Below are positions 50,105 to 50,790 of a DNA stretch of 64,000 nucleotides, piece by piece (the stretch's first letter is position 1; each line of letters starts with the position of its first letter). The notes below the pieces were generated by a model. It was not told the origin of the DNA. It worked only from the letters and a program-made list of their open reading frames with translations, and ran no database searches. The stretch comes from Flavobacteriales bacterium (lineage in GTDB: Bacteria > Bacteroidota > Bacteroidia > Flavobacteriales_F > PHOS-HE28). A program made the translations under genes and the position numbers. Location of the stretch: positions 68,431-132,430 of the forward strand of contig JBIQIX010000010.1 of NCBI GenBank assembly GCA_044507815.1, written 5' to 3'.

Positions 50105-50790
50105 GTTGTTTGAACCACGGATGGACACGAATGCACACGGATCATGATTGTTCGGATCACCGGATGTGCGACCCCCTCGGGGTCGTAATGGCTTTTTGGA
50201 TTTACCAGCAACGGTGTGTGACCCCTGCCGGGGTGAGGTCGGGCCCGTGCTTCTGATGGACACGGATCATGGCGGTTCGAACCACGGATGGACGCGGATG
50301 CACACGGATCATGATTGTTCGGATCACCGGATGTGCGACCCCCTCGGGGTCGTAATGGCTTTTTGGATTTACCAGCAACGGTGTGTGACCCCTGCCGGGG
50401 TGAGGTCGGGCCCGTGCTTCTGATGGACACGGATCATGGCGGTTCGAACCACGGATGGACGCGGATGCACACGGATCATGATTGTTCGGATCACCGGATG
50501 TGCGACCCCCTCGGGGTCGTAATGGCTTTTTGGATTTACCAGCAACGGTGTGTGACCCCTGCCGGGGTGAGGTCGGGCCCGTGCTTCTGATGGACACGGA
50601 TCATGGCGGTTCGAACCACGGATGGACGCGGATGCACACGGATCATGATTGTTCGGATCACCGGATGTGCGACCCCCTCGGGGTCGTAATGGCTTTTTTG
50701 ATTTACCAGCAACGGTGTGTGACCCCTGCCGGGGTCAGGACGGACCCGTGCTTGTGATGGCCACGGATCATGGCGTTGTTTGAACGCGGG
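50105..50790. repeat. direct tandem repeat, 167-bp unit x 4 (near-identical) plus degenerate flanking partial copies
   Basis: Unit starts (aaccacggatggac[a/g]cg[a/g]atgcacacggatcatgattgttcggatcaccggatgtgcgaccccctcggggtcgtaatgg...gtgtgacccctgccggggtgaggtcgggcccgtgcttctgatggacacggatcatggcggttcg) fall at ~50113, 50280, 50447 and 50614. Each unit contains a perfect hairpin GACCCC-CTC-GGGGTC. A fragment gtgtgacccctgccggggtgagggcgggcc recurs at ~50818. Confidence 0.9.

Follow-up and report, generated by a model that had tools for sequence, protein, structure and literature searches.

The spacer described here lies within a window of 64,000 nt (the whole stretch of DNA that was analysed), the sequence of which matches contig JBIQKX010000009.1 of GCA_044464825.1, a MAG from plastic-enrichment microcosms. 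Homologs of gene C assign the lineage to Flavobacteriales, and the host is one uncultured species with a GC content of roughly 61%. On one side the spacer is bounded by gene C, which is transcribed from the minus strand, and on the other by pepE, which is transcribed from the plus strand (Table 1). The divergent intergenic gap, put at ~980 bp in the original prediction, measures 979 bp (49938-50915), and most of it is filled by a single tandem array, which TRF delimits at 50108-50775 with a period of 167, 4.0 copies, 98% matches and a score of 1273. An independent repeat search returned start-to-start spacings of 167/167/167, which bears out the initial description of a 167-bp unit repeated in tandem with almost no divergence; the copies are 98-100% identical to one another, and the period is not a multiple of 3.

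Table 1. Features of the spacer between gene C and pepE and of its flanks (positions in the 64,000-nt window).
Feature	Position	Strand	Description
gene C	47868..49937	-	first gene of the three-paralogue operon; PF26696 PTL_trimer, signal peptide
gene C likely promoter	49963..49992	-	TTTG, 18 nt, TATCTTCG; ends 25 nt before the ATG
unit 1	50108..50274	+	three deviations from the consensus (unit positions 4, 20 and 23)
perfectly 167-periodic core	50131..50698		568 bp
unit 2	50275..50441	+	consensus, identical to unit 3
decamer-phased motif	50283..50309	+	AAC, then CACGGAT-gga-CGCGGAT-gca-CACGGAT; equivalents at 50116, 50450 and 50617
hairpin 1	50334..50354	+	TGCGACCCC-CTC-GGGGTCGTA, 9 bp; copies at 50167, 50501 and 50668
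hairpin 2	50387..50401	+	GACCCC-TGCC-GGGGT; copies at 50220, 50554, 50721 and 50823
unit 3	50442..50608	+	consensus, identical to unit 2
unit 4	50609..50775	+	six substitutions in the 3' part
degenerate fifth copy	50776..~50880	+	65 nt shorter; hairpin 1 deleted
pepE (Peptidase_S51)	50916..51623	+	likely true start at 50916

Alignment of the copies revealed that the differences are confined to the two ends of the array. Units 2 and 3 do not differ at all, the three deviations of unit 1 from the consensus all fall in its 5' part, and the six of unit 4 all fall in its 3' part, where one of them turns hairpin 2 into a perfect GACCCC/GGGGTC stem. Unit 1 opens with an ancestral-type GTTGTTTGAAC junction. 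Partial degenerate copies had been expected at both ends; there is one on the pepE side, but nothing on the gene C side, where the sequence left of 50101 has no similarity to the array at offset 167. In the fifth copy the decamer motif survives in decayed form, and the hairpin-2 module (50817-50846) has 23/23 and 6/6 matches around one mismatch, with flanks that are only ~55-60% identical.

The unit is a mosaic of one single-arm decamer-phased motif, of the general form AAC(CACGGATNNN)x3, two further CGGAT repeats, and two GC-rich dyads that share their GACCCC/GGGGTC arms, the arms of hairpin 2 being the same as those of hairpin 1. The sub-features noticed in the original prediction, namely a hairpin, a GACCCC-TGCC-GGGGT element and an internally duplicated motif, are all present: GACCCCCTCGGGGTC occurs four times in the array, GACCCCTGCCGGGGT five times (including a solo copy at 50823), and ACGGATCATG twice in each unit. 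None of the three was found elsewhere in the 64-kb window, for which shuffles predict 0-0.3 matches, and the four matches to the decamer motif in the window are likewise all inside the array. CGGAT is present six times per unit and always on one strand (P <= 5e-5 for six in a 167-nt unit), the first three copies being exactly 10 bp apart; all 23 copies in the array are on the plus strand, on which GGA is counted 35 times and TCC not once. Hairpin 1 has a predicted stability of -15.3 kcal/mol (z = -2.1), and a T-run (TTTTT) begins 5 nt downstream of it; on the plus strand the hairpin may be regarded as a borderline case of a terminator-like structure. The density of GATC is 17 per kb in the array and 6.3 per kb in the window, owing to the CGGATCA repeats.

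The three-gene PTL_trimer operon headed by gene C is conserved in Flavobacteriales MAGs, where its upstream neighbours differ. Promoters of Bacteroidota have a well-established -33/-7 consensus, and a scan for TTTG-N17-23-TAnnTTTG picked up just two sites, neither of them in a unit on either strand: the likely gene C promoter and a weak match at 50028, which is also outside the array. A scan for sigma-70 promoters gave 0 sites in the unit. The gene C promoter is identical in sequence in a relative with 70% identity (L089), in which only the 160 nt adjoining gene C are conserved, including this promoter and a small hairpin; the Logan contig of this relative ends ~227 nt upstream of gene C. The conserved promoter lies within 55 nt of the ATG and the array begins 170 nt upstream, past the conserved segment, hence the earlier placement of the array in a "promoter region" is not supported. 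On the other side, the annotated start of pepE (50793, giving 276 aa) falls within the degenerate repeat copy, and a tentatively assigned pepE promoter box would lie downstream of the array, leaving the array upstream of it. We examined 80 loci with relatives of pepE (up to 80% identity) and five loci with the operon, and found neither an array nor any similarity to it; the 80 pepE-relative loci also have no similarity to the spacer. In the best of the pepE-relative loci, pepE follows a co-directional gene at a distance of 187 nt. As the gene order differs around the relatives of both pepE and the operon, the array is situated at a synteny breakpoint.

Judged by database searches, the unit is known from this locus and this species only, and nothing outside the species carries it in public data. 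A blastn search with the unit gave no match among 72,556 plasmids or among 50,697 phages; a 24-mer of hairpin 1 had 0 matches in JGI metagenomes and a 22-mer 0 in IMG/VR; a 20-mer of hairpin 2 had only two chance matches, in Streptomyces and Intestinimonas, among 185,579 GTDB species representatives. Of the possibilities raised in the original prediction, the genome-specific satellite is the one we favour, the unit probes being empty in all collections and the relatives being devoid of the array.

On balance, we regard the array as a locus-specific minisatellite between the PTL_trimer operon and pepE, generated by unequal recombination or slippage and probably either neutral or a variable spacer. 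It consists of head-to-tail tandem copies with a unit in the range of 10-200 bp, is non-coding and has no product of its own. Its edges are more diverged than its core, and a second MAG, as well as a strain sampled by another project, has the same locus with the same edges (see below). According to this scenario, an old duplication would have left the decayed fifth copy beside pepE, and the remaining copies would have been amplified and homogenised recently by RecA-type unequal crossing-over or by replication slippage; we infer the recent date from the identity of the inner copies and the restriction of substitutions to the outermost halves. Most likely, the array has little or no effect other than to keep two divergent promoters apart by a variable length, and the evidence does not favour either an RNA or a protein product. 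If it has any activity, the likeliest would be at the level of DNA, i.e. protein binding to the one-stranded phased CGGAT repeats and the dyads. The ordered arrangement of CGGAT on one strand with a 10-bp phase does look like more than neutral junk and speaks against a purely neutral minisatellite, and the intact hairpin-2 module within the decayed fifth copy suggests either constraint or gene conversion.

The main rival of the minisatellite interpretation, which we consider rather unlikely, is an amplified cis-regulatory cassette whose copy number tunes or insulates the divergent pepE and PTL promoters. The CACGGAT/CGGAT repeats and the GACCCC/GGGGTC dyads would then be putative sites of a DNA-binding protein. 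Winged-helix response regulators and ribbon-helix-helix proteins bind head-to-tail repeats spaced by about one helical turn, and pho boxes and OmpR sites offer parallels for phased repeats. It is the ordered, one-stranded, phased repeats together with the preserved hairpin-2 module that keep such a cassette under consideration: the first three heptamers follow each other at 10-bp spacing, all 23 of the 23 CGGAT copies share one strand, and in the fifth copy the hairpin-2 dyad persists on the upstream side of the tentative pepE start region, at a distance of 66-80 nt. However, we found no regulator gene nearby, the relatives possess the same operon and the same pepE without the array, a survey of about 85 related Flavobacteriales loci did not turn up the motif, and in one strain the dyad of the fifth copy is disrupted by a substitution.

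A further point for a regulatory role comes from the only part of the unit that has relatives elsewhere, i.e. positions 3-40 (GAAC-CACGGAT-gga-CGCGGAT-gca-CACGGAT). The motif pattern CACGGATNNNCRCGRATNNNCACGGAT was detected in 81 stretches of IMG/VR, with 100 distinct occurrences, which are preceded by AAC in 63% of cases and are intergenic in 85%; 28% have an inverted partner arm, and a single contig may contain up to seven copies. The similarity of the unit to these copies reaches 92-94% over 36-38 nt, and the likeness stops after ~37 nt. Permuted heptamers with the same spacing gave 9 and 33 IMG/VR stretches as compared to the 81 for CACGGAT, so the enrichment is real but moderate (~2.5- to 9-fold). 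The control stretches are mostly single-copy, and the larger of the two sets comes mostly from one sample; what distinguishes the phage CACGGAT motif is its multi-copy dispersal across many samples. The contigs that bear it are genuine phages with terminase and portal genes, and their hosts are not Bacteroidota, since their genes have Shine-Dalgarno sites. Their portal and terminase proteins match those of cultured phages at no more than 27% identity, from which no host can be inferred. Motifs of this kind may be typical of Verrucomicrobiota and Planctomycetota. We found the motif neither in Rfam (queried with 13 motif-bearing phage loci) nor in cultured phages, plasmids or the searched literature.

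The phage motif and the Flavobacteriales unit have in common the AAC flank, the heptamer, the 10-bp period, the GGA and GCA spacers and the intergenic location. They differ in that the phage copies are dispersed, often have an inverted partner arm and are close to start codons with Shine-Dalgarno sites, whereas in Flavobacteriales the motif is restricted to the array, always has a single arm and belongs to a lineage that does not use Shine-Dalgarno sites. The strong intergenic preference of the motif family in phage contigs hints at a function. One could go further and predict that the decamer module is what a nucleic-acid-binding system not described so far recognises, that such a system is widespread among uncultured phages and the hosts of these, and that the Flavobacteriales species captured the module and amplified it as a multi-site, copy-number-variable control cassette between the secreted-protein operon and pepE, but we consider this proposal a long shot.

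Weaker than the regulatory cassette, and in our opinion improbable, is the possibility that the array is transcribed from the plus strand as tandem small RNA cassettes or as a long repetitive leader of pepE, acting as a sponge or an attenuator. Each unit would then provide a GGA-rich single-stranded stretch followed by a terminator-like hairpin. The strand bias of GGA (35 on the plus strand and none on the minus strand), the stable hairpin 1 with its downstream TTTTT, and the orientation of every motif towards pepE are all consistent with such an RNA, and the ACACGGAUG motif resembles the CsrA SELEX consensus, RUACARGGAUGU. On phage contig L074, moreover, all five motif copies are on the coding strand, and no fewer than three are preceded by a stop codon and followed by a Shine-Dalgarno site. 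On the other hand, the GGA motifs are not in the loops of the predicted folds, as would be characteristic of a CsrB/RsmZ-like sponge, and CsrA itself is doubtful for Bacteroidota. The units lack a -33/-7 promoter and sigma-70-like sites, and the T-run only begins 5 nt past the stem of hairpin 1. Rfam searches returned nothing at the gathering threshold and nothing relevant at E<=10. When the unit was folded, as had been recommended, it was no more stable than its shuffles (z = +1.08 for the plus strand and +0.22 for the minus strand), and neither was the hairpin-2 region (z = -0.45, +0.18 and -1.2), on which grounds a stable RNA fold was rejected. In the fifth copy the outer stem differs in sequence with pairing kept, but this is a single comparison that carries little weight. 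The "structured-RNA array" suggested at the outset thus finds no backing in Rfam, in fold stability or in a Bacteroidota promoter within the unit.

That the unit is a dispersed mobile element, such as a MITE or a REP- or BIME-like sequence, clustered at this locus, is very unlikely. The unit does contain GC-rich hairpin modules, the array coincides with the synteny breakpoint, and the Logan contig of the relative with 70% identity also stops ~227 nt upstream of gene C. Nevertheless, no copy of any module was found outside the array in the 64-kb window, no transposase is encoded nearby, no searched collection gave a match, and the region 49900-51000 has no inverted repeats of 12 nt or more and no terminal inverted repeats. 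Many dispersed copies are also at odds with the contiguity of Flavobacteriales MAGs of the same study (~60.7% GC, probably of the same species), for which short reads yielded only 23-24 contigs (PMC12159941).

Even less probable are tandem micro-ORFs, with one translationally coupled 55-codon ORF per unit. Such an ORF is indeed seen in the sequence (e.g. 50423-50590, MDTDHGGSNHGW...GPCF), and its TGA stop overlaps the next ATG as TGATG; the resulting period, one nucleotide short of 168, is what translationally coupled peptide genes would show, but we regard it as a coincidence. The GC content by codon position (0.57/0.52/0.70) follows the direction seen in real genes, and of the nine substitutions that separate the units in the alignment, three are synonymous when read in this frame. 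However, the log-likelihood of codon usage is -0.28 per codon; six real genes score between +0.25 and +0.43, and the off-frames between -0.45 and -0.6. There is no match in Pfam or NCBIfam, no annotation pipeline called the ORF, and there is no homolog in 5.8 billion proteins, where a chimeric query of all open translated frames had no match even at E<=10; among 1.84 billion representatives only one spurious repeat protein was retrieved. The minus strand holds an even longer open frame, which indicates that open frames arise here by chance in GC-rich DNA. With codon usage, Pfam, NCBIfam and two exhaustive protein searches all negative, a coding micro-ORF or a RiPP-like precursor was rejected. 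We also rejected a replication origin with iterons (nine DnaA boxes were observed vs 7.2 expected, none of them in the array, and there is no skew minimum) and, in agreement with the original prediction, a CRISPR: regularly spaced identical sequence with a palindrome is common to both, but what repeats here is the entire 167-bp period, with no difference between units 2 and 3 and no unique spacers, and there are no cas genes nearby.

The number of copies has to be distinguished from the existence of the array. A companion paper from the same BioProject describes 150-bp paired reads assembled with metaSPAdes (PMC12159941), and since the perfectly periodic stretch of 568 bp exceeds the 150-bp reads, no read can count the inner copies. 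In the sister MAG GCA_044508195.1 ("Flavobacteriales bacterium", 60.8% GC), the same locus has 100 N inside the array, followed by the remainder of a consensus unit, an internal junction, unit 4 and the fifth copy. The internal head-to-tail junction GGCGGTTCGAACC is part of contiguous sequence in this independent MAG, which shows that the tandem arrangement is not an artefact. Logan contigs (k=31) from four samples end exactly 30 nt inside the first and last unit-specific SNPs at both edges; the edge at unit 1 is supported by L004, as well as by L174 and L179, and that at unit 4 by L002 and L175, and the array edges were independently confirmed in two further conspecific assemblies. A strain from a second project (SRR26512501-505) exhibits the same break pattern with its own edge SNPs, and at least the last two substitutions of unit 4 (unit positions 146 and 153) are absent from it, its contigs beginning too far right to cover the other four. 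Strains differ by SNPs at the array edges, and all assemblies other than this one are either broken or gapped within the array.

The tandem repeat is a real and stable feature of the species. The count of four, in turn, is not established; it represents the path taken by one assembler, and the data require at least two full copies plus the degenerate one. That the whole tandem arrangement is an assembler artefact with no counterpart in the organism might be argued from the short-read metaSPAdes assembly, the 100-N gap in the sister MAG and the k=31 contigs that stop at both edges, but the chance of this is negligible given the contiguous junction in an independent assembly, the variants of unit 1 and unit 4 type that need at least two copies, the same break pattern with private SNPs in a strain from another project, and the unique sequence of the decayed fifth copy. 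The caution attached to the original prediction, that the array could turn out to be an assembly artefact or a MITE, was, on the assembly evidence, apt as regards copy number and was not substantiated otherwise, as there is no sign of a duplication artefact or of a MITE.

Among repeats with generally known features, the closest counterparts of the array are bacterial minisatellite or VNTR loci, e.g. MIRU and ETR of Mycobacterium tuberculosis. These too are intergenic head-to-tail repeats with units of tens to ~170 bp that evolve by slippage or unequal recombination, with homogenised inner copies and diverged edge copies; MIRUs also share with the unit a small ORF that ends in an overlap with the following start codon. 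In contrast, MIRUs occupy some 40 dispersed loci between co-directional genes of operons, and the array is known at one locus only, between divergent genes. The REP, BIME and REPIN elements of Proteobacteria are GC-rich imperfect palindromes clustered in extragenic DNA, as are the dyads of the array, but REPs number hundreds of loci per genome, mostly just past the 3' ends of genes, alternate in orientation and go together with RAYT transposases, none of which applies to the array. Tandem sRNA gene arrays such as LhrC1-5 of Listeria and CcsR1-4 of Rhodobacter resemble the array in their four to five head-to-tail units of ~100-170 nt with a hairpin and a T-run. Their units, unlike those described here, have promoters or a defined processed transcript and are conserved across species and mutually diverged, whereas in the array no promoter was found, the distribution is limited to one species and the copies are 98-100% identical.

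The locus in itself is of minor importance, being a young tandem repeat of a single uncultured species; in practice it would chiefly serve for strain typing. For users of MAGs it also holds a caution, in that artefacts of assembly and annotation may easily arise here, both in the copy number and in the annotated start of pepE, which falls within the repeat. The transferable point is the phased CACGGAT triplet, a 37-nt module that recurs intergenically in many unrelated phage contigs. If this motif is a binding site, it would represent a new regulatory signal for poorly studied phage-host systems.

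The motif of the repeat unit begins with AAC, after which come three CACGGAT heptamers spaced exactly 10 bp apart. It is a widespread intergenic element: in IMG/VR we identified 100 distinct occurrences, distributed over 81 phage-contig stretches (loci L006-L086) and reaching up to 7 copies per contig, while permuted controls were found in 9 and 33 stretches. The window contains it only at positions 50116, 50283, 50450 and 50617. In the phage contigs the motif is frequently placed after a stop codon and before the next Shine-Dalgarno site, and 28% of the IMG/VR occurrences have an inverted partner, with which they would form a stem of ~30 bp. 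Some copies are adjoined by the sister variants CACGAAG, CACAGAT and CTCTGTG. The motif is absent from Rfam, from cultured phages and from the literature searched.

In each repeat unit, the TGA of a 55-codon ORF overlaps the following ATG (TGATG), and it is because of this overlap that the unit period equals 168 minus 1. This ORF is unlikely to be coding, judging from its codon usage and from homology searches. The GenBank annotation of pepE (276 aa) starts at 50793, within the degenerate repeat copy, and the sister MAG has a call of 219 aa; the Pfam alignment and the homologues point to 50916 as the start codon position, for a protein of 235 aa.

On the other side of the array, gene C opens an operon conserved across Flavobacteriales MAGs, whose products belong to PF26696 (PTL_trimer) according to precomputed Pfam assignments. 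The paralogues have no NCBIfam match and no sequence match to any solved structure; in two relatives the operon is adjoined by T9SS-sorted proteins. Both small hairpins upstream of gene C are kept in a relative with 70% identity (Logan contig L089), the loop of TTGCC-n6-GGCAA not being the same in the two sequences. The L089 contig also ends ~227 nt upstream of gene C, and its terminal 60 nt (1-60) carry a different short tandem motif, CGCTGAGG x2, on the reverse strand. The same position may be taken up there by a repeat of another sequence.

Two further short tandem arrays are present in the window: one at 36401-36533, with a period of 44 nt and made of CAATCGGTG-like 9-mers, and one at 43246-43322 (AGGAGAGGA x8.4), downstream of the PTL_trimer operon. 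At the window end (60001-64000) the GC content, otherwise about 0.62, drops to 0.45, a possible sign of a foreign island. The SRP RNA is consistent with the Bacteroidota assignment.

Features of the window and their coordinates
Feature	Position	Remarks
SRP RNA, Bacteroidales small type	6047-6153	Rfam RF04183, 106.7 bits
Three-gene operon, secreted paralogues of ~690-780 aa	43463-49937	also in L089, L090 and L093
Small hairpin TTGCC-n6-GGCAA	49975-49990	upstream of gene C, between -33 and -7 boxes
Small hairpin CTTCCAC-aac-GTGGAAG	50044-50060	upstream of gene C
ORF, 55 codons	50423-50590	equivalent position in every unit
pepE start discrepancy region	50793-50915	

In the sister MAG of the same species (GCA_044508195.1, JBIQIC010000033.1) a scaffold gap of 100 Ns (4324-4423 of locus L174) falls exactly within the array. 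This gap provides a concrete case of a tandem repeat left unresolved by a short-read MAG.
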